A program made the position numbers and the translations under genes. Below the pieces are notes generated by a model. It saw only the letters and a list, made by a program, of their open reading frames with translations, was not told where the DNA came from and ran no database searches. A stretch of 62,441 bases of DNA from an uncultured Collinsella sp. (GTDB lineage: Bacteria; Actinomycetota; Coriobacteriia; Coriobacteriales; Coriobacteriaceae), in the NCBI GenBank assembly GCA_965141565.1, contig CBCSNQ010000001.1:1-62441 (forward strand). The letters run 5' to 3'. Position 1 is the stretch's first letter. Every line of letters begins with the position of its first letter. This document shows positions 41,966 to 59,302 of this stretch, one piece after another.

Positions 41966-42307
41966 AGATCCTCCTTGTGTTAAAGCCCCCGAGCTCTTGG
42001 TCACTCGTAGGGCAAAAGCCAGAGTTTGTAGCACTCTATCACAAGCGACGGGCACTGTCGCAGGGTAAAGCTAATAGATATTGCATATGCACAAAAATGA
42101 CTACAGCTTGTATGGAGTCACTCAAAGATGCCGGTCTGCCTGCAGATTATGCAGGCGTTGAAAATGTATAAAGGTGTGAATGAGCTGCGTCTGTTATCGA
42201 ATACTCTTACCTATCAGAGTTGTGTGCTTTTCCTGCATAAAGTAAGGGTTTGCGCACGTCAGCGTGTTATTCTAGACATACGTAAATTCGTATAAGTTGG
42301 AGGTAGC

Positions 42308-42793
42308 ATGTTCTCAATCGGTCAACACGTCATTCATCCGGGCCAGGGAGTCTGCACCGTCGTCGGTTTTAGGGACGACACACCGCAGCCCATGCTGCTG
42401 CTCGAGACCAAGCAGGGACATGCGCAGACGATCCTCATGTACCCCGTGGCGCAGGCCGACCGTTTGCACGCCGCCATCTCGCAGCAAGATGCCGAGCATT
42501 TGCTGAGCCACTATGACGAGCTGGAGTGCGACACCTTTACCGAGCGCAACAGCTCGCTTGAGGAGACGCACTTTAAGCAGCAGCTCAAGCTGGGCGCACC
42601 CGAGACGGTCCGCGTGGCAAAGACCATGATGCACCGCATTCGCCAGGCCGAGGAAGCTGATAAAAAGCCCAGCTCCTACTACATGCGCGTACTCAAGGAA
42701 GCCAAGCGCCGCTCCATCGAGGAGTTCGCCGTGGCCTTGGGCGTCACCGAGGAGGCCGCCGAAGCTCGCCTAGCCCAAGCCGCCCTCAACTAA
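42308..42793 (+). CDS. CarD/TRCF-RID family transcriptional regulator
   Basis: MFSIGQHVIHPGQGVC N-terminus; GGAGG RBS. Confidence 0.8.
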   Translation: MFSIGQHVIHPGQGVCTVVGFRDDTPQPMLLLETKQGHAQTILMYPVAQADRLHAAISQQDAEHLLSHYDELECDTFTERNSSLEETHFKQQLKLGAPETVRVAKTMMHRIRQAEEADKKPSSYYMRVLKEAKRRSIEEFAVALGVTEEAAEARLAQAALN

Positions 42794-42806
42794 CCCATCC
42801 GCGCCA

Positions 42807-42847
42807 AAAACCACCACAAAGGGGACAGGCACCTTTGTGGTGGTTTT
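42807..42847 (+). repeat. 41-bp palindromic REP-like element, copy 1
   Basis: aaaaccaccacaaagg-ggacaggca-cctttgtggtggtttt. Confidence 0.92.
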
Positions 42848-42901
42848 CTTGTTCTAGTAGTATTCATTCTTATCGATACCCACGAGCACAAGGAGTCTGT
42901 T

Positions 42902-43501
42902 ATGGCAGAGCCGCTTACCGCCGGAATCACCCGCGACCGCGCGTTCGAACTGCTCAACGAGCACAACAAGGACCCGTTCCACATCACCCATGGCGAGACG
43001 GTCGAGGGCACTATGCGCTACTTTGCACGCGAGTTCGACCCCGAGAACGAGGAGTTTTGGGGCATCGTCGGTCTGCTGCACGACCTGGATTGGGAGGAGC
43101 ATGAGGACGACCCCATGAACCACACCATCTATGCTGCCGAGATTCTTGAGGGCGAAGGTGCGTCTCCCGAGCTCATTCGCGCCATCCAGACGCACACGTC
43201 GGACTTCAACACCTCGCTGCCCAAACCCGAGCTGCAGATGGAAAAGATCCTGTTTGCCTGCGATGAGCTCACCGGCCTGATCGGCGCTGCAGTCATCATG
43301 CGCCCGAGCAAGAGCGTTATGGACTTTACGACCAAGTCGCTCAAGAAGAAGTTCAAGGACAAACGCTTTGCCGCCGGCTGCTCGCGCGACGTGATTTCGC
43401 AGGGCGCCGAGATGTTGGGCTGGGAGCTCCCCGAGCTCTTTGACCGCACCATCGCGGCCATGCAGTCCTTCGCCCCCGACCGCGATACCTTCCAGGCCTA
43501 A
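42902..43501 (+). CDS. HD-domain hydrolase (HDIG-like)
   Basis: HGETVE...GLLHDLDWE...DELTGLI...KKKFKDKRFAAG. Confidence 0.88.
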   Translation: MAEPLTAGITRDRAFELLNEHNKDPFHITHGETVEGTMRYFAREFDPENEEFWGIVGLLHDLDWEEHEDDPMNHTIYAAEILEGEGASPELIRAIQTHTSDFNTSLPKPELQMEKILFACDELTGLIGAAVIMRPSKSVMDFTTKSLKKKFKDKRFAAGCSRDVISQGAEMLGWELPELFDRTIAAMQSFAPDRDTFQA

Positions 43502-43516
43502 CCGCCCACGCCACCT

Positions 43517-43557
43517 AAAACCACCACAAAGGAGACAGGCGCCTTTGTGGTGGTTTT
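43517..43557 (+). repeat. 41-bp palindromic REP-like element, copy 2
   Basis: aaaaccaccacaaagg-agacaggcg-cctttgtggtggtttt. Confidence 0.92.
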
Positions 43558-43571
43558 CGTTTACGAGGGCG

Positions 43572-44858
43572 TTAGGGACGGACCTGGCCGGTGCCGCGGA
43601 GCTTGTATTTGTAGGTGGTGAGGGCCTCGGCGGCAAAGGGGCCGCGGGCGTGGAGCTTTTGGGTCGAGATGCCGATCTCGGCACCCAGCCCAAACTCGCC
43701 GCCGTCGGTAAAGCGCGTGCTGGCGTTGGCGTACACGGCCGAGGCATCGACTGCATCCAAGAAGCGCTCGCAGGCGTCCGCGTCCTCGGCGATGATGGCC
43801 TCGGAGTGCATGGTGCCATAGCGGTTGATGTGCGCGATGGTCTCGTCCTCGTTCGCCACGACCTTCACGCTCATCTCGAGCGCCAGGTACTCACGGCCCC
43901 AATCCTCCTCAGTCGCGGCAACATAGTCGTCGCCCTCGGCAAGCCCAGCGTCGGCGCATGCAGCGCACGTGGCCTCGTCACCGTGAATCAGCACGCCGTG
44001 GTCGTGCAGCACGGCAACGACTGCGGGCAGGAAGCGATCAGCAACGGCACGGTCGACCAGCAGCGACTCGGCGGCATTGCACACGCCCACGCGCTGGGTC
44101 TTGGCATTGACGATAATGTTGAGCGCTTTATCGAAGTCGGCGGATTCATGCACGTAGATGTGACAGTTGCCCGTACCCGTCTCGATCACCGGCACAAGCG
44201 ACTCGCGCACGCAGCGCTGGATCAGGCCCGCACCGCCACGCGGAATGAGCACGTCGACGATGCCGCGGAGCTTCATGAGCTCACCGGTGGCCTCGCGGTC
44301 GGTGGACTCGATCATCGAGATAGCCTCGCGCGGGAAACCCTTGGCCTCGAGCGCATCGGCCAGCAACTCGGAAATCATGGCGCACGAGTGATAGGCCAGC
44401 GAACCGCCGCGCAGGATGCAGGAGTTGCCGGTGCGGATGCAGATGCCCGCGGCGTCGGCCGTCACATTGGGGCGCGCCTCGTAGACCATGGCGACCAGGC
44501 CCAGCGGCACACTCACACGGGTCAGGTCCACGCCGCTTGTAAGCACGCGGTGGTCGAGCACGCGGCCCACGGGATCGGGCAGCTCGGCGAGCTTTTCCAG
44601 GCCGGCGGCCATGCCCTCGACACGCTCGGGCGTCAGCAGCAGACGGTCGAGGAGCCCCGCCGAAGTGCCCGCATCGCGCGCGGCGGACATATCGAGCTCG
44701 TTGGCGGCGACGATGGAGTCGACACCGTTGCGCAGTGCTGCGGCCATGGCGCGCACGGCCTCCTGGCGCTGCTCATCGCTCGCCGTGGCAAGCGAGGCCG
44801 ACGCTGCCTTGGCGGCAACGGCAAGATCGTGGACATACGTGGCTATATCGACCGACAT
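43572..44858 (-). CDS. proA: glutamate-5-semialdehyde dehydrogenase
   Basis: YEARPNVT, IPRGGAGLI, NASTRFTDGGEFGLGAEIGISTQKLHARGP. Confidence 0.97.
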   Translation of the reverse strand: MSVDIATYVHDLAVAAKAASASLATASDEQRQEAVRAMAAALRNGVDSIVAANELDMSAARDAGTSAGLLDRLLLTPERVEGMAAGLEKLAELPDPVGRVLDHRVLTSGVDLTRVSVPLGLVAMVYEARPNVTADAAGICIRTGNSCILRGGSLAYHSCAMISELLADALEAKGFPREAISMIESTDREATGELMKLRGIVDVLIPRGGAGLIQRCVRESLVPVIETGTGNCHIYVHESADFDKALNIIVNAKTQRVGVCNAAESLLVDRAVADRFLPAVVAVLHDHGVLIHGDEATCAACADAGLAEGDDYVAATEEDWGREYLALEMSVKVVANEDETIAHINRYGTMHSEAIIAEDADACERFLDAVDASAVYANASTRFTDGGEFGLGAEIGISTQKLHARGPFAAEALTTYKYKLRGTGQVRP

Positions 44859-44970
44859 GGGCGGCCCTTTCTCCTAGAAGTTTGCAACCATGGTAGCCGA
44901 TTTGCGCATGGCCTCGACCGCGGCGGTAGAATTGGTCAACCCGAAACACCGCAACGAACGGAAGACTCAC

Positions 44971-46389
44971 ATGGCCCTCATCACTTCGTACCACGTCCCC
45001 GGCCTTTATGTCGAGGACCACAGCATCGACGTCCCCCTTGACTGGCGCGGCCTGGAGCCGATGCTTTTGGCCGTCGGCAGCACCATGCGCCGCGGCGCTA
45101 TGCCGGCACCCATCGCCGGCGCGCCCGAGAGCATCAAGCTCTTCTACCGCGTGGTTTGCGCGCCCGGCCGCATCAACGACGATCTGCCACTGCTCCTGTT
45201 TTTGCAGGGCGGCCCCGGCGGCGAGAGCCCGCGTCCGCTGTCGCCCACAAGCGACGGTTGGATCGAGGAGGCCGTCAAGCACTTCCGCGTGGTCCTTCCC
45301 GACCAGCGCGGCACCGGACGCAGTAGCTGTGTGGACGGACGCACGATCAAGGCACTGGGTGATCGCGCAACGGCCGCCGGCGCCGATACAGCACGCTCGC
45401 AGGCGGACTTCCTCAAGCGCCACCTCGCCAGCTCCATCGTGCGCGATTTTGAGTACCTGCGCCTAGTGGGCTTTGGCGGCAAGCCGTGGGTCACGCTCGG
45501 CCAAAGCTACGGCGGTTTTTTGACGCTGAGCTACCTGTCGCTCTTCCCCGAGGGCGTGGCGGCAAGCTTTACCTGCGGCGGCATCCCCCACGTGCCGGCG
45601 AGCGCCAGCGAGGTCTACGCGCACACCTTCCCGCGCATGGCCGCCAAGACGCAGCAGTATTACGACCGCTACCCCGCCGACGTCGAGCGCGTGGCAGCCC
45701 TGGCCGATGCGCTTGAGGCACAGAAGCCCGTGCTGCCCGACGGCTCGCCAATGACGGTCGAGCGCCTACAGCTCATGGGCAGCGACTTTGGCATGAAGCC
45801 GAGCTTTGAACGCATGCATTGGATTATCGATCACGCTTTTGTTGGTGGCGACGGCACGCTGACCTGCGGCGCCTCGGTATCTGACAGCTTTTTGATGCGC
45901 GCCTTCGAGCGCACCAACACGCGCACGAATCCGCTGTACTGGACGCTGCAGGAGTTCATATACGCCGACGGTGACACTATGCCCATTGGCTGGGCCGCGG
46001 CTGAAGAGAAGGCTCACCGCGCCGAGTTCGACACCCTCGCGCGCCCGCTCATGTTTACCGGCGAGGCCATGTTCCCGTGGATGTTCGAGCAGATGCCCGA
46101 GCTCAAGCCCTTCAAGCCCGCCATGGACCTGCTGATGGAAGACACCAGCTGGGACAAGATCTACGACCCGCAGCGACTGGCGTGCAACGAGGTGCCCCTG
46201 CAGGCCGCGGTGTATTTCGACGACATGTACGTGGATTCGGGCCTGCAGCTTGATACGCTCAGCCGCGTGGGCAACTCGCATGCCTGGGTGACCAACGAGT
46301 TCGAGCACGACGGTCTGCACGGCAGCGTGGTATTCAAGCACCTCTTCGACGAAGCCCTCAACCGCGGAGACCTGCGTCAGATCTTCTAA
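44971..46389 (+). CDS. proline iminopeptidase (alpha/beta hydrolase, S33)
   Basis: FLQGGPG, DQRGTGRS, GQSYGG, YFDDMYV, NEFEHDGL. Confidence 0.88.
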   Translation: MALITSYHVPGLYVEDHSIDVPLDWRGLEPMLLAVGSTMRRGAMPAPIAGAPESIKLFYRVVCAPGRINDDLPLLLFLQGGPGGESPRPLSPTSDGWIEEAVKHFRVVLPDQRGTGRSSCVDGRTIKALGDRATAAGADTARSQADFLKRHLASSIVRDFEYLRLVGFGGKPWVTLGQSYGGFLTLSYLSLFPEGVAASFTCGGIPHVPASASEVYAHTFPRMAAKTQQYYDRYPADVERVAALADALEAQKPVLPDGSPMTVERLQLMGSDFGMKPSFERMHWIIDHAFVGGDGTLTCGASVSDSFLMRAFERTNTRTNPLYWTLQEFIYADGDTMPIGWAAAEEKAHRAEFDTLARPLMFTGEAMFPWMFEQMPELKPFKPAMDLLMEDTSWDKIYDPQRLACNEVPLQAAVYFDDMYVDSGLQLDTLSRVGNSHAWVTNEFEHDGLHGSVVFKHLFDEALNRGDLRQIF

Positions 46390-46391
46390 CA

Positions 46392-46584
46392 AAGGAGTGT
46401 CTCCGCCTGCCAGCACAAAAGGAACGTCCCCAAGTGCCGAACAAGTGCCGGCAACGACAATGCCGCAGGTAGAGGACGGAAAGCGAAAACGCCCCTAAGC
46501 GAGCAAGGTGACGTGAAAGAGGAGGGCATTGACCTTTTGGTCATGCCCGACGATTGAACGTCAGATTGCCGCTTAGGGGCGTTT
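46392..46584. repeat. composite intergenic repeat: GGGAC-core motifs, CCGCAGGTAGA motif and a 15-bp perfect inverted-arm element
   Basis: aaggagtgtc and aaggaacgtccccaagtgccg (shared with 59164-59302); ccgcaggtaga at 46463; aaacgcccctaagcg (46487) / cgcttaggggcgttt (46570). Confidence 0.75.
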
Positions 46585-46598
46585 GCAGCGTCAATTGG

Positions 46599-47726
46599 TT
46601 ATGCAAATACGATCAAGTTATCCCTGTGTATCGCCGGCTTCTCGGCCAGGTTAGCGAGCAGGCGGTTGCTGGCGATCTGGTCCTGGCGGCGGCCGGCGGC
46701 AAGTTCCAGCACGTCCGAATCGGCCTCGGCGATACCGCGGGCGACAACCATGCCGCTCGGGTCGCACACGTCGAGCACATCGCCCTCGGCAAACTGGCCA
46801 TCGACCTCGCGAATACCCACCGCAAGCAAGGAAGAGCCACGGCTGACCAGCGCCTTCGCAGCACCATCATCGACCGTCACCGAGCCATGCGCCTTGTCGC
46901 CCAGTGCGATCCACAGCTTGCGGGGTGCGATGTCCAGACGCTCCGCCGGCGGATCGAACAGCGTGCCCACGCTCTCGCCGCGGGCGAGGCGCACGAGCGC
47001 ATCGGGTTCCTCGCCCGAGCAAATCACGCTCTGAATGCCCGCCGTCATCAGGATGCGGCTCGCGCGGATCTTGGTAATCATGCCGCCCGTTCCCACCGAT
47101 GTGGAAGAATCGCCCGCCGAGGCAATAATCTTGGCATCGATCTTATGCACGACAGGAACAAACTCGGCCGTGAGGTCCTCATGCGGATTGGCAGTATAGA
47201 GACCATCGATGTCCGAAAGCGTCACGCACAGATCGGCAGAAACCAGGCAGCTCACGAGCGCCGCCAGCGTGTCGTTGTCGCCAAACTTGATCTCATCGAC
47301 AGTAACGGTATCGTTCTCGTTGACGACCGGCACCACGCCAAGCTCCACCAGGCACAGCAGGGCGTCGCGCGCGTGCAGGTAGGACGTACGGCGCGCCGTG
47401 TCGTGACGCGTGAGCAGCACGAGCGAGGTGAGCAGGTCGCGCGCATGAAACTCCTCGTCGTAGGCCGACGAGATGATGCACTGGCCGGCCGAAGCGCAGG
47501 CCTGCAGGCTCGGCAGGTCGCCGACCGGCTTACGGTCGAAGCCCAGCACGGGATAGCCACAGGCGATAGCGCCCGAGCTCACCACGACCAGACGCCAGCC
47601 GAGCTTGCGCAGCGCTGCGGCCTGATCGGCAAGCCCGCCGATAAAGGCGCGGTTGACCTTGCCGTCGGCGCCCACCACCGTGGACGAGCCGATCTTTACC
47701 ACCATCGTTTTATAAGAAGTCGTCAT
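46599..47726 (-). CDS. proB: glutamate 5-kinase (with PUA domain)
   Basis: VVKIGSS, VSSGAI, NENDTV, FGDNDTLAA, GTGGMITK. Confidence 0.97.
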   Translation of the reverse strand: MTTSYKTMVVKIGSSTVVGADGKVNRAFIGGLADQAAALRKLGWRLVVVSSGAIACGYPVLGFDRKPVGDLPSLQACASAGQCIISSAYDEEFHARDLLTSLVLLTRHDTARRTSYLHARDALLCLVELGVVPVVNENDTVTVDEIKFGDNDTLAALVSCLVSADLCVTLSDIDGLYTANPHEDLTAEFVPVVHKIDAKIIASAGDSSTSVGTGGMITKIRASRILMTAGIQSVICSGEEPDALVRLARGESVGTLFDPPAERLDIAPRKLWIALGDKAHGSVTVDDGAAKALVSRGSSLLAVGIREVDGQFAEGDVLDVCDPSGMVVARGIAEADSDVLELAAGRRQDQIASNRLLANLAEKPAIHRDNLIVFA

Positions 47727-47805
47727 ACGTCAAACCAATCAACTGTTCAGCGAACGGCCGAGCCGGCGGCCAAGGAAGCGTGACTCGCCCCTACCGCCCA
47801 AGGAA

Positions 47806-49311
47806 TTAGTGAGCCCAAGGAAAGGCAGAGGCCGCGGCCATGTTCTTGCGCACGAGCTCGTCGCGCACCTGAGCCAGGCCCTGCTCCATGCCCACCACAT
47901 AGGTCTGCGGGTACAGGAAGCGCTTGAAAGCTGCGTCCAGATGATCGAGCGCCCAAGCACAGCGCTCGCGCGCGTCCTGGATGCTCTCACGCGGAGCCAC
48001 CGCGCTGCCATCGCGCACGATCGGCACCAGCAGCTCGCGATACTCAAGTTCGGACACGTCGGTCACCAGGGCGGCATCATTCACGGCCACGAGGGTATTG
48101 CCGCGCGCGGCGCCCTCCCCCGCCAGATGGTCCTCGTCGTAGATCATGTCGCAGACCGGGCCGCCAAAGCCGTCGTAATAACGACGCACGCGTTGCACAC
48201 CCGGGATCGTGCGCTTGTAGGGCTGCTCGGAGAGCTTGACCACCGGAGTCCATGGATCTGCCTCGCTCGCACGGCGGGCGGAAAGCTTGTACACGCCGCC
48301 CAGCGCCGGCTGGTCATAGCAGGTCGCGAGCTTGGTACCCACGCCAAAGCTGTCGATGGGCGCGCCCTGGTCGAGCAGCGACTGAATCGTGTACTCATCC
48401 AGATCGTTGGAAACCGAGATCCCCACATAGGGCAGGCCCTCGGCATCAAAACGGTCGCGAACATACTTGGAGAGCTTGGCGAGGTCGCCAGAGTCGATGC
48501 GAATGGCCGACAGGCGCTCGCCCACCGCTTCCATCTCCTTGGCAACCGTAATGGCATGTTCACAGCCCTCGCGCACGTCATAGGTGTCGATGAGCAGCGT
48601 ACAGTTCTTGGGGCTCGACTTGGCAAAGGCGCGGAAGGCCTCGAGCTCGGAATCGAAGCTCATCACCCAGCTGTGCGCATGCGTGCCAAAGACGGGAATA
48701 CCGTAGCGGCGGCCGGCGAGCACATTGGACGTAGAGGAGCAGCCGGCAACGTAGCTCGCGCGCGCAACGGCCAGGCCGCCATCGGGACCCTGGGCTCGGC
48801 GCAGGCCAAACTCCGCCACGGGGCGACCGTCGGCGGCGAGCACCACGCGCGCCGTCTTGGTGGCGACAAGCGTCTGGAACCCGACGATGTTGAGCAGCGC
48901 CGTCTCGAGCAGCTGGCACTCCAGCGCGGGGCCGGTGACGCGCACCATGGGCTCGCGCGGAAAGACGAGCTCGCCCTCGGGCACGGCGTCGATGTTTACA
49001 TGCGCACGAAAATCGCGCAGGTAGTCGAGGAATCCAGGCTTGAACATCGCGCCGCCGGCAGGGGCCTGGAGCGAGGCGAGGTAGTCGATGTCCTCGGGCG
49101 TAAAGCGCAGATTCTCGACCAGCTCGGGCAGTTCGGCGGTGCCGCACATGACGGCATAGGCGCTGCCAAAGGGATGGTCGCGGTAAAACGCGGTAAAACA
49201 ACCCTGCTCATTGGCCTTGCCGCTCTCCCACAGGCCCTGGGCCATAGTGAGCTCGTACAGATCGGTGAGCATTGCAATGTCTGTGGGATGCGAGATGTCG
49301 GTCAAAGCCAT
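47806..49311 (-). CDS. pncB: nicotinate phosphoribosyltransferase
   Basis: LTDLYELTM, EFGLRRAQG, GTHAHSWV, IRIDSGDL, FGVGT. Confidence 0.95.
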   Translation of the reverse strand: MALTDISHPTDIAMLTDLYELTMAQGLWESGKANEQGCFTAFYRDHPFGSAYAVMCGTAELPELVENLRFTPEDIDYLASLQAPAGGAMFKPGFLDYLRDFRAHVNIDAVPEGELVFPREPMVRVTGPALECQLLETALLNIVGFQTLVATKTARVVLAADGRPVAEFGLRRAQGPDGGLAVARASYVAGCSSTSNVLAGRRYGIPVFGTHAHSWVMSFDSELEAFRAFAKSSPKNCTLLIDTYDVREGCEHAITVAKEMEAVGERLSAIRIDSGDLAKLSKYVRDRFDAEGLPYVGISVSNDLDEYTIQSLLDQGAPIDSFGVGTKLATCYDQPALGGVYKLSARRASEADPWTPVVKLSEQPYKRTIPGVQRVRRYYDGFGGPVCDMIYDEDHLAGEGAARGNTLVAVNDAALVTDVSELEYRELLVPIVRDGSAVAPRESIQDARERCAWALDHLDAAFKRFLYPQTYVVGMEQGLAQVRDELVRKNMAAASAFPWAH

Positions 49312-49395
49312 GGGGCGACCTTTCGGATGTGTGGTGCAGAATTTGAGGGTTGGACGAGAGCAGAGCATGCGGACATGACGCCCGATGCAAATCGG

Positions 49396-49854
49396 TTAGA
49401 GCAGGCCCATGCTGGTCAGGATCGTGTAGCCCATAAAGATGACGAACGCGATGAGGGCAAGGACAATGATGATTTTTTGAGCCGGCGCCATGCCAGGGAT
49501 CTCGTTCTCGCCCGTAGGCTCCTTGGAGGTGACCATGCGCTGGGCAAAGGTCATCTCGTCACGGCTCGGCGCGGGCTCGGCGGACTTGGGACGAGCGGCC
49601 TTTTTAGGCTGAGGTTTGGGCGCGGCAGGTGCAGGCTTCGCAGCAGCGGGCTTGGGTGCGGGCGCGGGCGCCGGTGCGGATGCGGCGTTCACGGCGACCT
49701 CCTCGGCCTTCGCACGCTCGGCACGCAGGGCAGCCAGCTCCTCACGCTCGCGACGGGCCTCTTCCCGAGCCTCGCGGCGGGCCTTCTCGGCGCGGAGCTC
49801 TTCCAACTCGGTGCGCTCCTCGTCGGACAATGGTTGGGACTCAAGCTCGGCCAT
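49396..49854 (-). CDS. hypothetical protein (coiled coil, Pro/Ala linker, C-terminal TM)
   Basis: Charged helical N-terminus, PAPAPK linker and a hydrophobic tail; GAAAGG RBS. Confidence 0.7.
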   Translation of the reverse strand: MAELESQPLSDEERTELEELRAEKARREAREEARREREELAALRAERAKAEEVAVNAASAPAPAPAPKPAAAKPAPAAPKPQPKKAARPKSAEPAPSRDEMTFAQRMVTSKEPTGENEIPGMAPAQKIIIVLALIAFVIFMGYTILTSMGLL

Positions 49855-49918
49855 GGTGCAGCCCTTTCTTTCAAAAAAAGCCGCCGACACAATGTCAGCG
49901 GCTTATCAAATCCAAGGG

Positions 49919-49991
49919 TGGAGACGAAGGGAGTCGAACCCTCGGCCTCTGCCATGCGACGGCAGCGCTCTCCCAACTGAGCTACGTCCCC
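49919..49991 (-). tRNA. tRNA-Ala(CGC)
   Basis: GGGGACGTAGCTCAGTTGGGAGAGCGCTGCCGTCGCATGGCAGAGGCCGAGGGTTCGACTCCCTTCGTCTCCA; terminator hairpin at about 49873-49904. Confidence 0.95.
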
Positions 49992-50097
49992 AGGACAAGT
50001 CGATATTTTACCTACGGCTCGCCAACTGTCAACGCCCAATAACCAGTCTTTTTGGAGCGCGGCTATTTTGACAACCTTTCGAGCAAGCGATTCTCTC

Positions 50098-50131
50098 GAT
50101 GATTTTTAATCCCCGTCCCAGAAAAATCATC
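50098..50131. repeat. GGGAC-core palindrome variant
   Basis: gatgattttt-aatccccgtcccag-aaaaatcatc; similar core at 61325-61357. Confidence 0.6.
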
Positions 50132-50141
50132 CGTGTGCGCA

Positions 50142-51080
50142 CTACTTTGCGCTGGTGAGGACACCAGTGGTGTCGAAGGCCGGGGTGAAGCTCTCGTCTA
50201 CCGCGCCGCCCTCTTGCCAGAACATCGTCGTAAAGCCCAGGTCGTCGGCATGGTCGAGCACCTGCTCGTACTCCTCGCGCGTCACGGCGCGCGCCAGGTC
50301 GCCGCCTTGTTCGCGCATGAGGGCATTAGGCGTGTATTGGTTCATGACCGAGATCGGCACGTCGCCCACCGTCTGCCACACCAGGTCTAGCACACGGCAC
50401 GAGTCATCCGCATGCCCCGGCAGCACCAGGTGGCGCACGATGATGCCGCGCTTCATGAGCCCGCCCTCATCCACCAGCTCTCCCCCGCGGCGATCGATCT
50501 CGCGCGCCATCTGGGCCAGACCCGACACGGCCACGCGCGGGTAGTCCTTAATATGAGAAAGCGACTGCGCAAGCCCGGCATCGGCATATTTAAAGTCAGT
50601 GAGCCACACATCGACCAGGTCGCCCAGCGCCGCCACGGCACTCGCGCGCTCATAACCGCTCGTGTTGTAGACGATTGGGATGACCAGCCCGCGCGCCCGT
50701 GCCGCGGCAATCGCGGCAGGCAACAGGTGCGCATAGTGCGTCGCCGTCACCAAATTGATGTTGTTGGCACCCTGGTCCTGCAGTTCCAGCATAATCTCGA
50801 CCAGGCGCTCAGGCGAAATCTCAAGGCCAAAATTGCCGGTCGAGATCTCGTGGTTCTGACAGTAGATACATTTAAGCGAACAGCCGCTAAAGAAGATCGT
50901 GCCCGAACCGGCCTCGCCCGAGATAGGCGGCTCCTCCCACATATGAAGCGCCGCGCGGGCCACCCTGAGCGTGTCGTTAGCACCGCATACGCCGCGCGCG
51001 CCCTCATCGCGCGCCGCACCGCAACGGCGCGGACACAAATGGCAGGCGGACGAAAAAAGTTCGGTCAACGACGTCGGCAT
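50142..51080 (-). CDS. radical SAM protein (PflX-like)
   Basis: CHLCPRRC, GSGTIFFSGCSLKCIYCQN, YNTSGYE, IVRHLVLPGH. Confidence 0.9.
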   Translation of the reverse strand: MPTSLTELFSSACHLCPRRCGAARDEGARGVCGANDTLRVARAALHMWEEPPISGEAGSGTIFFSGCSLKCIYCQNHEISTGNFGLEISPERLVEIMLELQDQGANNINLVTATHYAHLLPAAIAAARARGLVIPIVYNTSGYERASAVAALGDLVDVWLTDFKYADAGLAQSLSHIKDYPRVAVSGLAQMAREIDRRGGELVDEGGLMKRGIIVRHLVLPGHADDSCRVLDLVWQTVGDVPISVMNQYTPNALMREQGGDLARAVTREEYEQVLDHADDLGFTTMFWQEGGAVDESFTPAFDTTGVLTSAK

Positions 51081-51230
51081 AAAAACATGCTCCAAAACAA
51101 CGATTCAGCAGCTCAAACGTAAAGGGCCAGACCGCGTAGACGGCTCCGTCCCTAAGGCGCCGTAATCGTCCGACACGATTTTTGTAATGTCAAGACTGGA
51201 ATCGATAAAGTGCCGCTTTATGATGTAGGT

Positions 51231-51396
51231 ATTCCGCCCCCCGCGGAGCAACTGGGTGAACCGTCGCGTTTATTTAGGGAGCCCACACAGTCGTACCTAG
51301 TACAGGTATCCTTCGTTGTTAAGGACGCTGGAACAGTCGATGAGGGCACCCACCTGTTTTAGGTGGGTTCATTTTCGTAACGTGGGGGGTGGTTTT
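51231..51396 (+). ncRNA. ssrS: 6S RNA
   Basis: Closing stem ccgccccccgcg/cgtggggggtgg; tgaacc/ggttca; GGGAGCCC and GAGGGCACCCACCTG motifs as recalled for Bacillus-type 6S; TATGAT -10 at 51219. Confidence 0.8.
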
Positions 51397-51606
51397 CTTT
51401 TGCCGAAAATCACCATTACAGTCCATATGGATTCCCGCTGGCATCCCGACAAGCCATCGACAACATCCCAATATCTGGTAAGCGCGTGATTATCGCTGCG
51501 TGCAATTACATGCACCCCCCTTTGTCGAGTATTATGGTTCGGCTATGCCCTTTGCGCATGGCGTTCTTCTGACCTTTTCCTTCGACGCTTGGCGGTTTTT
51601 AGATTC

Positions 51607-52806
51607 ATGGCTTCATCCCCGAGCTACATACCGTACCTATGCGTGGCAGCGGCGGCCTTTATCACGACCTTCCTCACGGTCCCCCTGGTCAAGCGCCTGG
51701 CAATCAAGCTCGACGCCGTCGACTATCCTTCCAAGCGCCGCATCAACACGAAGCCCATCCCGCGCATGGGCGGCACGGCGGTCTTTTTGGGCCTCGTCGT
51801 CGCCTGCATTGTTCACATCCTAGGCACCTGGTACCTGGGCTGGCCGCCCGTTTTGGTGCCTCATCCCCTCTTGCACATCAGCTACCCCATACTTGCGCTT
51901 TCTTTTACCGTTATCTTTGCGACCGGCGCGATCGACGACGTCTTTCAGCTCAAGCCCAAGCAAAAGCTGGCCGGCCAGGTCCTCGCCGCGCTCATCGCCT
52001 GCGTGGGCGGCCTAAAAATCGGCGTCATCGTCAACCCGTTTGCCCCCGGCGAGATCATGCTCGGCTGGCTCGCTTACCCCATCACCGTGGTCTACCTGGT
52101 GGCGTTCACCAACATTATCAACCTCATCGACGGCCTTGACGGCCTGGCGACGGGTATCTGTGGCATCGCATCGTTCACGATGTTCTCGATGGCCGTTCTC
52201 TCGGGCCGCATCGATGCCGCCGCGCTCTCCATCGCGTTGTTTGGCGCCTGCTTGGCCTTTTTGCGGTACAACTTCAACCCCGCGAGTATCTTCTTGGGCG
52301 ACTCGGGTTCGCTGCTGCTGGGCTTTGCGCTCGGCTCCATATCGCTGCTCAACGTGAGCCGCACCGCCGCGCTCACATCGCTCATCATCCCGCTCATCGT
52401 GGCCGGCGTGCCCATCATCGACACGTTTAGCGCCATCGTGCGCCGCAAGCGCGCCCACATTAGCATTGGGCAGGCCGACAAGGGCCACATTCACCACCGC
52501 CTGATTCAAGAGGGTTACAACCAAAAGCAGGCCGTGCTGCTCATCTACGCCTGGTGCATCATGCTTTCGGCCGGCGCCGCCGCCATCAATCAGGTCGAGG
52601 TTCCCATGCGCGTGCTCATCTTTACCGTGCTCGCCATTGGCTCGGCGGCCTTCGCCAAGCACCTGCACCTGTTTGAGCCCGTGCTGCGCCACCATTACAA
52701 CAAGCGCACGCACGAAGACGAGCTGGTAACCCCCGACGACCCCGCCTTTAAGCAGGAGGAGCAGGCAGCCGAGGAACGTAAGGAAGAGCGCCACCACAAG
52801 CTCTAG
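51607..52806 (+). CDS. undecaprenyl-phosphate N-acetylglucosaminyl-1-phosphate transferase (WecA/TagO family)
   Basis: PIPRMGG, GAIDD, NIINLIDGLDGLA, IFLGDSGS, ADKGHIHHRL; start uncertain. Confidence 0.9.
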   Translation: MASSPSYIPYLCVAAAAFITTFLTVPLVKRLAIKLDAVDYPSKRRINTKPIPRMGGTAVFLGLVVACIVHILGTWYLGWPPVLVPHPLLHISYPILALSFTVIFATGAIDDVFQLKPKQKLAGQVLAALIACVGGLKIGVIVNPFAPGEIMLGWLAYPITVVYLVAFTNIINLIDGLDGLATGICGIASFTMFSMAVLSGRIDAAALSIALFGACLAFLRYNFNPASIFLGDSGSLLLGFALGSISLLNVSRTAALTSLIIPLIVAGVPIIDTFSAIVRRKRAHISIGQADKGHIHHRLIQEGYNQKQAVLLIYAWCIMLSAGAAAINQVEVPMRVLIFTVLAIGSAAFAKHLHLFEPVLRHHYNKRTHEDELVTPDDPAFKQEEQAAEERKEERHHKL

Positions 52807-52965
52807 GGTAAGCTGCCGAGGATGTGCCCAGGCACCGTTGGCCAAGCGCAGCCGCGCCGCGCCCATCGCGCAAGCCGCCTCTCTCCCGCCACTCGCCTGC
52901 TTACGCCCCGCCCCTCCAATAAACGCGTTATCATCTTGACCCATGAACATACGTTAGGAGCAATC

Positions 52966-54015
52966 ATGCCAAACGAGAACAGCTACGAAGTCGCGTTGCA
53001 AAAGAGCAACGCCATTCGCGAGGGCCTGGCAAAGACGCCCGAGAAGTTCACCATGCTTACCGGTGACCGCCCCACCGGCCGTCTGCACCTGGGCCACTAC
53101 TTTGGCACCCTCAAGGGCCGCGTTGAATTGCAGAACATGGGCGCCAAGACCAACGTGCTCATCGCCGACTACCAGGTCATCACCGACCGCGACACCACCG
53201 AGCACATCCAGGACAACGTGTACAACATGGTCATGGACTACCTTGCCTGCGGTATCGACCCCGACAAGACCATGATCTATGCGCACTCCGCCGTGCCCGC
53301 CGCCAACCAGCTCATGCTGCCGTTCCTGTCGCTGGTGTCCGAGGCCGAGCTGGCACGCAACCCCACCGTCAAGGCCGAGATGGAGGCCTCGGGCCATGAG
53401 CTTACCGGCCTTCTGCTCACCTACCCGGTGCACCAGGCCTGCGACATCCTGTTCTGCAAGGGCAACGTGGTGCCGGTCGGTCGCGACCAGCTGCCGCACA
53501 TCGAGCTCACCCGCACCATCGCCCGCCGCTTTAACAACCGCTACGGCAAGGTATTCCCCGAAGTCGACGCGCTGCTGTCCGAGACCCCGCTGCTGCCCGG
53601 CCTAGACGGTCGCAAGATGAGCAAGAGCTACGGCAACGCCATCAATATTTCGATGACCGCCGAGGAGACGGCCAAACGCATCAAGAAGAGCCAGACCGAC
53701 TCCGAGCGCATGATCACGTTCGATCCCGAGAACCGCCCCGGCGTGTCTGGCCTGCTTTCGACAGCCGCCATCTGCACCGGTCGCTCCGAGGTCGAGATTG
53801 CCGAGGAGATCGGCATGGGCGGCTCCGGCCAGCTCAAGAAGTACGTGACCGAGGCCGTCAACGAGTACTTCGCACCGATCCGCGAGCGTCGCCAGCGCTA
53901 CGAGAACGATCTGGACTATGTGAAGGACGTCCTGCATGAGGGCAACCGTCGCGCCAACGAGATTGCCGAGCAGACCCTGGCCGAGGTTCAGGACGCCATG
54001 GGCATGGTGTACTAG
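52966..54015 (+). CDS. trpS: tryptophan--tRNA ligase
   Basis: TGDRPTGRLHLGH, VPVGRDQLPH, KMSKS; AGGAG RBS. Confidence 0.97.
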   Translation: MPNENSYEVALQKSNAIREGLAKTPEKFTMLTGDRPTGRLHLGHYFGTLKGRVELQNMGAKTNVLIADYQVITDRDTTEHIQDNVYNMVMDYLACGIDPDKTMIYAHSAVPAANQLMLPFLSLVSEAELARNPTVKAEMEASGHELTGLLLTYPVHQACDILFCKGNVVPVGRDQLPHIELTRTIARRFNNRYGKVFPEVDALLSETPLLPGLDGRKMSKSYGNAINISMTAEETAKRIKKSQTDSERMITFDPENRPGVSGLLSTAAICTGRSEVEIAEEIGMGGSGQLKKYVTEAVNEYFAPIRERRQRYENDLDYVKDVLHEGNRRANEIAEQTLAEVQDAMGMVY

Positions 54016-54047
54016 ACCGATTTGCTGGTTTGAGCTTTCGATTGCTA

Positions 54048-54078
54048 TAGGGCGGGCGCTACGGCGTCCGCCCTTTTT
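54048..54078 (+). terminator. intrinsic terminator of trpS
   Basis: agggcgggcgc..gcgtccgccct followed by tttt. Confidence 0.75.
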
Positions 54079-54351
54079 GGTGCCCGACCTGTTCGGCTCC
54101 GCCCATCGCACTCCCCCGACAAACAGGAACAGGCCCGCCGGCAGTTAGTTGCCAGCGGGCCTGTTCCCGAAGTACACCGTTGAATCGCACAGAGGGGAGG
54201 AATGCGAATCAAACTCAACAGGGCAGGCTTTTTCATCGCCTATTGCCTGCTCCGTTGCTGAAACCAATATAGTTCACCGTGGTTTACTTTCTAGCATCAA
54301 TATGCGCCGCCATACCTTCTCCATAAGTTAGCTCCGGTAAACCTGCAACGG

Positions 54352-54392
54352 AAAACCGCCACGAAGGGGACAGGCACCTTTGTGGTGGTTTT
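54352..54392 (+). repeat. 41-bp palindromic REP-like element, copy 3
   Basis: aaaaccgccacgaagg-ggacaggca-cctttgtggtggtttt. Confidence 0.9.
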
Positions 54393-54408
54393 GGCCACGG
54401 CAGAGCCG

Positions 54409-54729
54409 CTAGAATCCGGCAGGCCAGCGACAGGCGGCCAAGTCGACGTGCATGTCGTCCTTAAACGCCACACCCTCCCCTAGCAAAAGCTCACGTTGAG
54501 CATCAGGGCCGCCAAAGGCAAAGCCTTCGCAAATGCGGCCGTCGGCAAACACCACACGATGGCAGGGAATCTGGCCGGGGCGCGGATTACTATGCAGGGC
54601 ATACCCCACGTACCGCGCACTTCGTGGGCGACCGGCGAGCAGCGCCACCTGACCGTAGGTGGCGACCATCCCCTCGGGAATCTGCTCGACCACCTCGTAC
54701 ACCCGTTCAAAAAAGCCCTCAGACGCCAT
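54409..54729 (-). CDS. MGMT/alkyltransferase family protein (single domain)
   Basis: IPEGMVATYGQVA...ARYVGYAL...IPCHRVV. Confidence 0.9.
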   Translation of the reverse strand: MASEGFFERVYEVVEQIPEGMVATYGQVALLAGRPRSARYVGYALHSNPRPGQIPCHRVVFADGRICEGFAFGGPDAQRELLLGEGVAFKDDMHVDLAACRWPAGF

Positions 54730-54755
54730 TGCTCGCTCCCTTCCACCCGGAAAAG

Positions 54756-54800
54756 CATAAACCACCACAAAGGTGCCTGCCCCCTTTGTGGTGGTTTATG
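54756..54800 (-). repeat. 41-bp palindromic REP-like element, copy 4 (core reversed, arms extended)
   Basis: cataaaccaccacaaagg-tgcctgccc-cctttgtggtggtttatg. Confidence 0.9.
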
Positions 54801-54809
54801 GCAGGTCGG

Positions 54810-55664
54810 TTAGTTGGCGGGCTGGAAGAAGGCTACGGCTACGGCGCCGGGGCCAACGTGGGTACCGATGGTGGCGCCGATGGTGTGAACGGGCAACTCG
54901 CCCTCGGTGTGGCCAGCCCACAGTGCCGCGCTGTCCTCGACATACTTCTTGAGCACCGCATCCGAAAGGCCTGTATAGCCCAGCGCCAGCGGCATGGAAA
55001 AGTCGATGCCGCCTGACTTTTCGACCTTTTGGTTCAGCAGGTTGCGGCCGTTCTTGGAACCGCGCGCCTTGCCCAGCTGCACGATAAGGCCGTCCTCGAC
55101 AGCCACCACGGGCTTCACGTTGAGCAGCGTGCCCACGGCGCCGGCCGCAGCAGATAGACGACCGCCGCGAACCAGGTACTCCAGCGTCTCGAGCAGGCCG
55201 ATGACGACCACGCGGTCACGGACGGCCTCGACGGCCGCCGCGATCTGGGCCGCACTACGGCCCTCGTCCACCAGGCGCAGGGCATACTCGACCAGGACAC
55301 GCTCACCCAGAGTGACGTTGTTGCTATCCACCACGTACACGTCGCCGCCCGGCGCCTCGGCAAGTGCGGTACGGGCACTCTGATTGGTGCCCGAAAGCTT
55401 AGCGCCCACGGTAATAATCACAGCCTCATCGCCGGCCTCACGCGCCTCGGCAATAGCCTGCGAAAACGCGTACGGGTTGACCTGGCCGGTCTTGGGCAGC
55501 TCATCGCGCTCCACGAGCATCTCGTAAAAGCGCTGGTGATCGATGTCGACACCATCCATGTACACATCGGTGCCAAAGGTGACGGACAGCGGCAGAACAC
55601 GCAGAGCGGGGTGCTCAGCCGGCGACATATCGCTCGCGGAATCGGTAATAATACGAATGGACAT
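54810..55664 (-). CDS. DegV family fatty-acid-binding protein
   Basis: IITDSASD, PKTGQ, LSGT, TLEYLVRGGR, IGTHVGPG. Confidence 0.93.
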   Translation of the reverse strand: MSIRIITDSASDMSPAEHPALRVLPLSVTFGTDVYMDGVDIDHQRFYEMLVERDELPKTGQVNPYAFSQAIAEAREAGDEAVIITVGAKLSGTNQSARTALAEAPGGDVYVVDSNNVTLGERVLVEYALRLVDEGRSAAQIAAAVEAVRDRVVVIGLLETLEYLVRGGRLSAAAGAVGTLLNVKPVVAVEDGLIVQLGKARGSKNGRNLLNQKVEKSGGIDFSMPLALGYTGLSDAVLKKYVEDSAALWAGHTEGELPVHTIGATIGTHVGPGAVAVAFFQPAN

Positions 55665-55783
55665 AGCGAATCCTTTCTTGCGCGGACCTCGCGCGGGGAA
55701 TTTTGACAGCAATGCCCCGGCACGGTATACGCGCTCAAACGGGACTATGCAGTTGTTAATTGGAAGCAAATGCCTTGGCGGCC

Positions 55784-56233
55784 TTAGATCTCGCGCAGGG
55801 TGTTGAGAATCGTGCGCAGCGACGCATACATCTGCTCGCGCTGCTCCACACCCATAGCCTTTCCGGTGGTATCGAGCACCTCGCGAATGATGCGGTCCGC
55901 CTCGCTCATGCTCTCGCCGCCCAGAGCGGTCAGGCGCACCGGAGCACGATACTTAACGGCGGCATCGCCCGAATCATCGACCTCGACGTAGCCACCCTCC
56001 TCCAGATGCGCGAGCGTACGCGAGACGGCGGCGCGGGTCACGCCTGCCATGCGAGCCAGGTCGGCGCCAGTCAGGCCGTCCTTGCTGCGCTCAAGATAGT
56101 ACAGGCACATAACGTCGGAGCCCTTGAGACCCAGCCTTGCGCCCTCAGACGTCTTAATGCGCTGGATCTCCTTGTAGAGTCCGCTGATCAGTCCGACAAA
56201 GTCCTCGAAACGTGTCTCGTCGCTCTGCTGCAT
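55784..56233 (-). CDS. MarR-family transcriptional regulator
   Basis: wHTH LTGADLARMAGVTRAAVSRTLAHLEEGGYV...LTALG; upstream of degV. Confidence 0.88.
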   Translation of the reverse strand: MQQSDETRFEDFVGLISGLYKEIQRIKTSEGARLGLKGSDVMCLYYLERSKDGLTGADLARMAGVTRAAVSRTLAHLEEGGYVEVDDSGDAAVKYRAPVRLTALGGESMSEADRIIREVLDTTGKAMGVEQREQMYASLRTILNTLREI

Positions 56234-56337
56234 GGGAGACGACCGCCTTTCGCTTGCATAATGCTAACGGGTAAACATCTTAGTCGCATAAGGCGACACC
56301 CGTACCCAAATACCCCATTTGTTAACCCATCAACATA

Positions 56338-56378
56338 AAAACCACCACAAAGGGGACAGGCACCTTTGTGGTGGTTTT
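56338..56378 (+). repeat. 41-bp palindromic REP-like element, copy 5
   Basis: aaaaccaccacaaagg-ggacaggca-cctttgtggtggtttt. Confidence 0.92.
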
Positions 56379-56406
56379 GACCGGCGAACATGATCCGCAG
56401 ACGCCG

Positions 56407-57126
56407 CTACAGCTCCACACAGGGATTGTCGCGGGTCACAAGCGTCTTAACGACAACCGTCGCTCCCAGATAACGCTCGAGCAACTCGGCGAGACGATCA
56501 ACGGCAGCCTGGCATTCCCCCATCCGCTCGGGCTCCACGCACTCAATCGCCAGGAACGCATCGGCCGAATCATCGGACAGGGCCGTTCGAACGCCGTCGC
56601 GCCAGTTCCAGCAGCGGCACACGGCGCCCGCATCATCGATGTAGGCGAGCTCGCCGGGCAGCGTCGGATCGTCCGTCTCCTCGCCAAGCGGCAAAAACGC
56701 ATCGCCACCGTCGGTCACCTTCAGGCGAAGGTCTCCCTCGATCGCATGCAGATCCTCGCCTCCCACGGGCAGCGCGTAGGTCAGCGACACCGTGTTGTAA
56801 ATATCCACCGCGGGCGTAATGTGGCCCACCGGCTTGCCTTTGAGCACGCGTTTGAGCAAGTTCTCGATCGAGCAGCGCGCGCCTTTCTTGGTCTTGAACA
56901 GACGATAGGCCTCGCGCCATGCCTTGACCGGTGCGTTCTCGCTGATAGTGTCGCTGGTCAGATGACGCTCCGCATCGATATTGGCGCGGTCGAGCAACGC
57001 CGCAATCGCATCCACGTCCTCTTGAGGAATCTGAGCCGTGGGCTTCATGCCCTCCACGACCACAACACCGACCGCTGCCTGCGGAAACAGCTCCCAGAAT
57101 GAATCCTCGGCAATAAAGCTCTTCAT
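56407..57126 (-). CDS. stand-alone B3/4 domain protein (candidate canavanyl-tRNA-Arg deacylase)
   Basis: WREAY..F, RCSIENLLKR, VDIYNTVSL, GGED, CRCWNWRD; AAGGGAG RBS. Confidence 0.88.
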   Translation of the reverse strand: MKSFIAEDSFWELFPQAAVGVVVVEGMKPTAQIPQEDVDAIAALLDRANIDAERHLTSDTISENAPVKAWREAYRLFKTKKGARCSIENLLKRVLKGKPVGHITPAVDIYNTVSLTYALPVGGEDLHAIEGDLRLKVTDGGDAFLPLGEETDDPTLPGELAYIDDAGAVCRCWNWRDGVRTALSDDSADAFLAIECVEPERMGECQAAVDRLAELLERYLGATVVVKTLVTRDNPCVEL

Positions 57127-57166
57127 ACGCTCTCCCTTCATTGTGCGCGCCCGAGCGAGGGCGCCT

Positions 57167-57262
57167 AAACAAAAAGCGCCCTTACAACGGCCACCTTCAA
57201 AGTCCTACGGTGCCGTCACAAGAACGCTTGCGCTGTCCCCATCCGGAGAAGGGGACGATATG
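57167..57262 (-). promoter_or_regulatory. probable guanidine-IV riboswitch
   Basis: P1 gtcccc/ggggac with loop UUCUCCGGAU; long terminator hairpin containing GUAGGA followed by UUUUU; TACAAT -10 at 57271-57276; B3/4 gene downstream. Confidence 0.65.
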
Positions 57263-57297
57263 TCAGGCGTATTGTAACCCGAGTCATCCACGCGAGC

Positions 57298-57334
57298 AAA
57301 ACCACCACAAAGGTGCCTGTCCCCTTTGTGGTGG
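57298..57334 (-). repeat. 41-bp palindromic REP-like element, copy 6 (core reversed, one arm truncated)
   Basis: aaaaccaccacaaagg-tgcctgtcc-cctttgtggtgg. Confidence 0.9.
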
Positions 57335-57353
57335 ATATGGACTCACGGCGACG

Positions 57354-59163: not shown

Positions 59164-59302
59164 CTAGTCATTGGGGACGTTTTTAAACGACTAGTCATTG
59201 GGGACACTCTTGAACAGGCAATATTCAAGGAGTGTCCTCGGATGCCGGCACTTAGGGACGTTCCCAAAGTGCCGGCACATAAGGAACGTCCCTAAGTGCC
59301 GA
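59164..59302. repeat. cluster of about 5 GGGAC-core palindromic REP-like units
   Basis: ctagtcattggggacgtttttaaacgactag; ggggacactcttgaa...ttcaaggagtgtcctc; ccggcacttagggacgttcccaaagtgccgg; aaggaacgtccctaagtgccg. Confidence 0.8.

Follow-up and report, generated by a model that had tools for sequence, protein, structure and literature searches.

The closest described relatives of the repeat analysed here are the repetitive extragenic palindromes (REPs) and their REP-associated tyrosine transposases (RAYTs). The term REPtron denotes a tnpA-REP gene flanked by REPs, as described for groups 2 and 3 in Proteobacteria (PMC8266576, PMC5581495). In group 3, the REPs form perfect palindromes and are read in a strand-specific way as hairpins of single-stranded DNA; REPs can also concentrate near their tnpA gene (PMC8266576). 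RAYT genes have REPINs beside them “almost always”, and the 16-mers contained in REPINs are abundant (PMC5581495). In the excerpted text of these papers, the REP/RAYT studies concern Proteobacteria. Here we describe element A, a 41-nt palindrome with six copies in 14.5 kb of a 62,441-nt stretch of DNA (hereafter the window), which is contig C1 (CBCSNQ010000001.1) of the 2.25-Mb, 209-contig draft assembly GCA_965141565.1 of an uncultured Collinsella sp. Family A probably represents the REP-type palindromes of a RAYT-like Y1/HUH transposase, orphaned in this genome. We take it for a genomic repeat of an established kind, and not for a novel system of gene cassettes.

Element A was located with a 16-N9-16 palindrome pattern allowing at most three mismatches, which gave exactly six matches in the window and none in any of 100 dinucleotide-preserving shuffles; a repeat finder grouped the same six copies as a single family. 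The gene order is CarD-like, A, HD, A, ProA-like and, farther on, A, MGMT-type, A, DegV-MarR, A, B3_4, A, PEPCK. We refer to the copies around the HD, MGMT-type and B3_4 genes as pairs 1, 2 and 3.

The evidence that ties family A to a transposase comes from the pair-1 locus, for which we scanned the genus with positions 42250-43900. The locus is colinear with the window in 43 genomes. One other genome (G054) carries a RAYT-like gene, RAYT-A, beside copy 2, with element A on both sides of the gene; its flanking copies span 41 nt and are 98% complementary. The gene is present as a pseudogene in a second genome (G012). A search of one genome per species returned 16 further RAYT-A loci, encoding proteins 84-89% identical to that of G054, and 64 loci of RAYT-E, a 45%-identical paralogue which occupies the same locus in other species. 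At the 16 RAYT-A loci, all from other Collinsella species, the gene directly adjoins the copy-2 site. Element A lies upstream in 16 of 16 (109-134 nt away) and downstream in 13 of 16 (22-29 nt away), with contig ends accounting for two of the three misses. The two flanking copies are inverted, with a + loop in 15 of the 16 upstream copies and a - loop in all 13 downstream ones. RAYT-E is accompanied by a palindrome family of its own, family E, which is found upstream at 61 of the 64 loci and on both sides at 46. The two pairings do not mix: family E was found at none of the 16 RAYT-A loci and family A at none of the 64 RAYT-E loci.

Neither RAYT-A nor RAYT-E is encoded in the genome analysed here (0 matches at E<=1e-60), the best tblastn matches to RAYT-A being 35% identical paralogues. 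For element A, the gene between inverted repeats that characterizes HUH/REPtron units is therefore found in other Collinsella and not in this genome. It is because RAYT-A is flanked by A elsewhere, and because both genes are absent here, that we regard these palindromes as orphaned REPs.

The RAYT-like proteins are ~270 residues long. They score above the Pfam Y1_Tnp cut-off of 23 bits (RAYT-A 47.2, RAYT-E 34.4, and 34.4 and 37.3 for the products of two further genes, on contig C21 and in the window). The N-H-x-H-L motif is invariant, RAYT-A and RAYT-E share R-Y-(V/I)-H-x-N-P, and the C21 protein keeps the Tyr (D-Y-I-H-L-N-P). A C-terminal extension of ~110 residues has no Pfam match. All but one of the RAYT-like paralogues examined are flanked by their own inverted palindrome family, and the flanking families all contain GGGGAC or GGGACA. 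The original prediction had given GGGG(A/T)(C/G)A(C/G) as the motif of one REP class, for which the excerpted text of PMC5581495 gives no confirmation.

The likeness to REP/RAYT systems extends over several features. Element A is a short extragenic palindrome in tens of copies per genome, its stems are perfect palindromes like those of group 3 REPs, and a single-copy, vertically inherited Y1/HUH gene lies between inverted repeat copies. As in REP/RAYT systems, a genome encodes several RAYT paralogues that each have a separate repeat family, the copies gather around the gene, and insertion sequence (IS) elements insert into the repeats. There are also differences: the stem is long (16 bp), the 9-nt loop contains a conserved GGACAG, copies are mostly singlets and not doublets, the proteins carry the C-terminal extension, and the host is an actinobacterial gut genus in which the cognate gene is missing from most species, including this one. 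Our literature searches found no description of this element or of any REP family in Collinsella, nor any publication that links the term “REP-associated tyrosine transposase” to Actinobacteria.

A number of observations weigh against the assignment of family A to RAYT-A. The match to REP/RAYT systems is incomplete. Element A lacks the GTAG tetranucleotide, 5′ of the palindrome, by which the REPs studied so far are defined (4 of 36 copies have GTAG/CTAC at most 14 nt from an end, with a null of 9.7%), its copy number is ~20-40 as opposed to hundreds, and none of the four proteins reaches the 80-bit cut-off of the NCBIfam model for REP-associated transposases, NF047646 REP_Tyr_transpos (RAYT-A 68.7, RAYT-E 70.1, C21 gene 57, window gene 38.6). 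Genomes with RAYT-A hold 22, 31, 34 and 30 A copies, and 20 in a half-complete assembly; that range of 20-34 is no higher than the 12-41 of RAYT-A-negative genomes. The link to RAYT-A rests on one locus, because the 120 loci (870 kb) that surround exact A copies elsewhere in Collinsella contain no RAYT-like gene. As the RAYT-A/A and RAYT-E/E associations are each a single orthologous locus, they count as two evolutionary events and not as 80 independent ones. No transposition event was caught in the genomes compared, and clean empty sites for lone A insertions were not found among the cross-species candidates; at one candidate (C47) a copy is in fact present, with its loop shortened, and the others were rearranged regions. 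Three further results speak against a terminator or stabiliser role of the hairpin: the loop-sense strand is not significantly preferred by G.U wobbles (19 vs 13, p = 0.38), a terminator scan flags none of the six window copies, and RNA reads show no clear step at 184-nt resolution.

Genome-wide, element A occurs in 31, 33 or 36 copies depending on search stringency. Genes were called with a self-trained codon-usage picker of open reading frames (ORFs), which reaches ~77% coding coverage and misses ORFs cut by contig ends, so the counts of gene context are approximate. Not one of the 36 copies lies within a Pfam-supported gene. Instead they hug the ends of genes: a gene 3′ end is at most 30 nt away for 26 of 36 copies and at most 100 nt away for 33. 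Of randomly chosen intergenic points, 14% fall within 50 nt of such an end. Thirteen copies lie between convergent genes, 16 in tandem and 2 in divergent (promoter) regions, whereas convergent regions make up 15% of all intergenic regions. Copies are also clustered. Ten same-contig gaps between copies are shorter than 3 kb. When copies were placed at random at gene 3′ ends, the expectation was 1.29, and no placement gave more than 7 (0/5000 reach 10). These 10 close pairs enclose one called gene in four cases, two in three and none in three. The claim of the original prediction that each pair brackets exactly one gene thus describes the three window pairs and fails as a general rule. Its simpler explanation, a locally dense REP family, was essentially right.

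Of 24 other genomes of the genus, 22 carry element A, each with 12-41 copies; the 16 genomes searched from the order's other genera have none, and a reversed-pattern control gave no copies. Among the exact 33-mer matches listed, the named records are all Collinsella or gut Coriobacteriaceae isolates, alongside a few labelled “uncultured bacterium”. Family A is confined to Collinsella. In a complete genome (G021) there are 33 copies scattered from 0.42 to 2.23 Mb, and most of these sites, including all six of the window, are also occupied in the genome studied here. The copies are old and mostly occupy the same sites across species.

The arms are strongly conserved. In an alignment of 29 species over 53900-57500, column identity is 0.969 in the 12-nt arm cores and 0.884 in the loop, next to 0.899 in other intergenic DNA and 0.84 at codon position 3. 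Across 82 distinct copies, compensatory double changes occur in 9 of the 16 stem pairs and fill 21 cells, as opposed to 7.7 in shuffles (0/500 reach 21) and 0-6 in slid controls. Given the high arm-core identity and these compensatory changes, the hairpin is constrained, and the loop diverges at roughly the rate of the DNA around it. The conserved motif of the family outside the stem is the GGACAG of the loop, and some loops are reduced to 3-4 nt between intact arms. A symmetric 16-9-16 layout with ~30 copies per genome and strongly conserved arms would also suit palindromic binding sites for a dimeric protein (an operator, nucleoid or segregation factor). We find that explanation scarcely credible: the copies favour gene 3′ ends and not promoters, the compensatory changes keep pairing and not a fixed half-site, the loops can be reduced to a few nucleotides, and the copies of the complete genome are spread over much of its length.

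The same data bear on a second alternative, that family A is a family of bidirectional intrinsic terminators whose sequence is shared via duplication or gene conversion, with the RAYT-like gene merely sitting between two of them. In the excerpted text of PMC8040213, 250 palindromic candidate RNA structures are catalogued in human microbiomes, the majority of which resemble terminators. The copies are found 3-30 nt past stops and are enriched between convergent genes, their conserved stems are predicted to form hairpins bordered by an A run and a T run, with energies from -24 to -33 kcal/mol (-25.9 kcal/mol, z -4.3 for the RNA hairpin of copy 1), and the loop is in the sense of the upstream-ending gene in 12 of 15 oriented tandem copies. 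Moreover, other hairpin families stand at the same sites elsewhere, suggesting an interchangeable function. But a consensus scan for intrinsic terminators (G+C-rich stem, short loop, at least 5 T in the 8 nt after the stem) includes none of the six copies among the 18 sites it lists, as the loop is 9 nt and only 4 T follow, these being predicted to pair with the 4 A. Classical terminators were detected nearby, and the tyrosyl/tryptophanyl-tRNA synthetase gene has its own at 54049-54074. Stranded RNA reads from a related strain, summarized in 184-nt bins and with multi-mapping at the repeats that masks any step, fall in depth from ~100 to ~48 after 54352 and from ~300 to ~188 at 57298, without a resolvable drop; 54758 and 56338 show no clear fall, and reads run through other copies. 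Terminators shared in this manner would also leave unexplained both the identical 9-nt loop of dispersed copies and the paralogue-specific palindromes at RAYT-like genes, including two at one locus. We consider this alternative improbable. A role of A copies at 3′ ends, in termination or in protection of mRNA, is nonetheless plausible given their position at gene ends, the predicted strength of the hairpin and the upkeep of the stem in genomes without RAYT-A.

Repeated terminator hairpins just after stops, often between convergent genes, are also a feature of the paired DNA-uptake sequences of Neisseria and Haemophilus. Element A resembles these in that an identical inverted repeat recurs just past stops. 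Uptake sequences, however, mostly occur as hundreds to thousands of single copies, whereas the A arm is almost never single and the loop is shared: the exact 13-nt arm occurs 38 times on both strands, about the count expected from the palindromes alone, and we rejected this possibility on that basis.

The original prediction favoured a further explanation, in which the copies are the borders of cassettes and a recombinase or HUH enzyme moves or inverts genes through the asymmetric 9-nt core. Integron attC and lox/dif sites are likewise palindromes around an asymmetric centre, and attC-like placement 3′ of single genes is seen here too. Variable segments do exist at A copies, as does the inversion of a bracketed gene, and each of them can be compared with what this mechanism predicts. 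The B3_4 segment is precisely absent from one genome (G019), with a single element A at the junction. The deletion joins copies with inverted cores, so core-directed exchange would have inverted the segment and not deleted it. The complete genome G021 has a 14.6-kb island between two copies, again with inverted cores, where one copy is present here; among its genes are those for a LuxR-type regulator and a surface protein of BspA type, and none for a recombinase. On contig C10 of the present genome, a direct repeat of 247 nt, which takes in the end of a gene, lies on either side of a 1.4-kb ATPase unit, and a repeat of that length with coding sequence points to homologous recombination. Two genomes (G054 and G052) have insertions of 1-3.9 kb beside copy 2. 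No recombinase genes were found in the window brackets or in the variable segments examined, and in contrast to attC and lox/dif sites the genes beside A are housekeeping genes of mixed orientation which are syntenic across species.

Inversions were found at pair 1 and not at the other units. Of 80 genomes of the genus, 16 have an inverted HD gene, adjoined by ~1.28 kb of extra DNA, which encodes a RAYT-like protein (Pfam Y1_Tnp). But these genomes have no A copy at the locus and carry family E at all three intergenic positions; the breakpoints, where homology ends, coincide with ORF ends, and all of the surrounding intergenic DNA is replaced. Four outgroup genomes (G014, G015, G085 and G050) have CarD and HD oriented as in the window. 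Over 53900-57500, by contrast, all 79 matching genomes of the genus are colinear, and not one has an inverted MGMT, DegV-MarR or B3_4 unit. The comparison of orthologous loci that had been suggested as a check therefore yields a deletion of B3/4 and an inversion of HD, and no flips of the MGMT, DegV-MarR or B3/4 units.

The loop itself can be reversed: it is flipped in place at 4 of 37 loci at 54758 and at one locus at 56338. Small inversions of hairpin loops flanked by short inverted repeats are known from plastid DNA, and as there, the 9-nt loop is flipped at orthologous sites with the arms unchanged. The case differs in that conversion from the ~30 A copies, some of them in the opposite orientation, is an equally good cause. 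A further check proposed for the cassette model was a search for read junctions within the core. RNA reads do show joints that skip between copies (56379>57349 and 54394>57349; 2-17 reads per run, with 8-9 extra letters between the sides), and we rejected these as excision. They are best explained by cross-mapping, in which 57298 reads of the related strain align to 56338 or 54352: even between flipped loops 4 of 9 letters agree, which is enough to pass the 88% threshold.

Taken with the inverted cores, these results make cassette borders very improbable. What stands of the original prediction is its link to a RAYT/HUH enzyme, through the 16 loci flanked by A, and not the cassette mechanism. 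The copies do mark break points, as seen in the B3/4 deletion, the inverted HD gene, the islands and the insertions of IS elements, and the variable segments suggest passive recombination at palindromic repeats. Near-perfect palindromes are both direct and inverted repeats of one another, which is why passive break points are expected of them.

Two unrelated insertion sequences have entered A copies, either where arm and loop meet or within the loop. An IS3-family element sits in the loop of the copy at the 54758 site with a 3-bp duplication (G093, L078:1597-3052), and an insertion sequence of the Mutator family lies at an A copy in other genomes (G063, L226:1740-3096; also G056 and G041). IS elements are known to target REPs, and these landings fit that behaviour. 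Four genomes (G002, G006, G069 and G054) have a 95-nt palindrome of another family, C, in place of the copy at 54758.

Other RAYT-like genes and palindromes are present in this genome. The second RAYT-like gene lies on contig C21 (1432-2241 of locus L003, 269 aa, Tyr kept) and is flanked by inverted 51-nt repeats (L003:1285-1335 and 2282-2332) that are 94% complementary and contain ATTGGGGACAGAC twice; judged from its sequence, this is an intact REPtron-like unit of a further family, F. In an outgroup genome (G014), two RAYT-like genes are each flanked by another palindrome family. The gene in the window (27037-27849, - strand, 270 aa) is syntenic and 77-96% identical across the clade, and Ser replaces the catalytic Tyr of its product (R-S-V-H-A-D-P vs R-Y-V/I-H-x-N-P). 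No flanking palindromes or canonical REPs were found around it, and it may be a domesticated, catalytically dead copy.

Family E, whose RAYT-E is absent here, has 38 copies in this genome (e.g. C34:11375, C205:809 and C22:10990). It is an oriented element of ~50 nt in which CGTTTGCCCAGATAAAA is followed by a hairpin, AACCTGCCAAAA / loop TAAACCTGTCCC / TTTTGGCAGGTT, and GGGACAGG is common to it and the loop of A. Family B forms arrays of two to four ~80-nt hairpins (TCTCGATCTGTAACA ... TGTTACAGATCGAGA) with arms alternating every 40 nt; its 93 arm matches are spread over 16 contigs (including C6:22106-38151, C10:25265-26809 and C5:29070-29271) and often adjoin an A copy. We rejected the idea that these are tRNA arrays, since ARAGORN found no tRNA there and Rfam had no match in six such loci. 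Family D palindromes (GGCACTTAGGGACGTTCC type) occur at 46392-46439 and 59227-59301 of the window, with 33 arm matches on 22 contigs, and resemble the repeats flanking a RAYT-like gene of the outgroup genome G014 (GGGGACGTGTTCC).

These families invite a broader and more tentative proposal, which we think rather doubtful as it stands: that Collinsella holds a divergent, GTAG-less branch of REP/RAYT in which each paralogue has its own hairpin family, recognised through a GGGAC(A) motif that the families share within or next to the loop, and in which loci are swapped and hairpins overwritten. The CarD-HD-proA locus would then be a swap site with the alleles RAYT-A+A, RAYT-E+E or empty and with its neighbour gene re-oriented, and the enzymes would overwrite 3′ hairpins with their own family (A for C at 54758, A for E at pair 1). 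If true, domesticated transposases would continually re-issue terminator-like hairpins, and orphan families would persist only through host dependence.

The positions of the window copies and of the genes inside the pairs are given in Table 1. The six copies of the original prediction were confirmed, apart from the start of the fourth, which had been placed at 54756, and so were the core orientations (direct in pair 1, inverted in pairs 2 and 3) and the enclosed HD, MGMT and B3/4 genes, all three borne out by Pfam. All six copies are indeed intergenic; the one at 54758 overlaps only the GTG start of the longest ORF of the MGMT gene. On the + strand, a GGACAGGCA-like loop is read at 42807, 43517, 54352 and 56338, and its reverse complement at 54758 and 57298. 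Copy 3 has two arm mismatches, both of them G.U on the + strand, the loop of copy 5 is antisense to the B3_4 transcript, and the right arm of copy 6 has decayed to ...GGTGGATAT. The interval 54758-56338 holds two genes, DegV and MarR, and the copies from 54352 to 57298 can also be read as a run of four separating three units.

Table 1 Element A copies in the window and the genes enclosed by the three pairs.
Feature	Position	Strand or loop	Context
Element A copy 1	42807-42847	+ loop GGACAGGCA	14 nt past CarD-like stop, upstream of HD gene
Element A copy 2	43517-43557	+ loop AGACAGGCG	Between convergent HD and aldehyde-dehydrogenase-family (ProA-like) genes
Element A copy 3	54352-54392	+	17 nt past MGMT-like stop
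Element A copy 4	54758-54798	- loop GGGCAGGCA	12 nt past DegV stop
Element A copy 5	56338-56378	+	Between MarR start and B3_4 stop
Element A copy 6	57298-57338	-	16 nt past PEPCK stop
HD-domain gene	42902-43501	+	Pfam HD 26.7 bits; inside pair 1
MGMT-type (DNA_binding_1) gene	54409-54768	-	Pfam 96 bits; inside pair 2
B3_4-domain gene	56407-57141	-	Pfam; inside pair 3

A promoter and a riboswitch had been predicted in the leader of the B3_4 gene. The promoter fits a transcript 5′ end at 57238, inside pair 3, seen in the RNA reads of the related strain. The riboswitch found no backing, as the leader (57100-57345) has no Rfam match at E<=1 and positions 40000-62441 have none at gathering score. 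With its 5′ end at 57238, the leader at 57142-57297 (- strand) yields a 5′ untranslated region of ~97 nt. A gap of 270 nt separates the tRNA-synthetase terminator from copy 3 (54080-54351); a further strong hairpin (54126-54167) lies within it, as does a site resembling a promoter (54293-54266, - strand), RNA depth is low on both strands, and molecules begin at 54179.

Returning to the reading of family A as orphaned REPs of RAYT-A, the following course of events would account for the window. RAYT-A would have spread A hairpins as single-stranded DNA, and pair 1 would be the former site of the transposase, from which the gene and one flanking A copy are now missing here. The absence of RAYT-A would reflect a loss, probably by deletion between the flanking copies. 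The ~36 copies would then be inherited, mostly at the sites they hold in sister species, and the six copies in 14.5 kb would represent a REP cluster around the transposase's former home. They may have been retained as strong 3′ hairpins which help to end or stabilise transcripts, and would passively offer points of breakage at which deletions, insertions and possibly inversions arise, which would lend them their resemblance to cassette borders.

For practical purposes, these repeats break assemblies, with contigs ending at A copies in several metagenome-assembled genomes, and they can mimic cassette borders or junctions of horizontal gene transfer. Collinsella is useful in this regard, with hundreds of close genomes, one locus that holds either of two unit types or none, and several orphan families. 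It offers a natural experiment on what becomes of REP populations after loss of the transposase and whether the host then selects the hairpins, and a second one on how palindromes give rise to small deletions and inversions and to island insertions in an abundant commensal of the gut.

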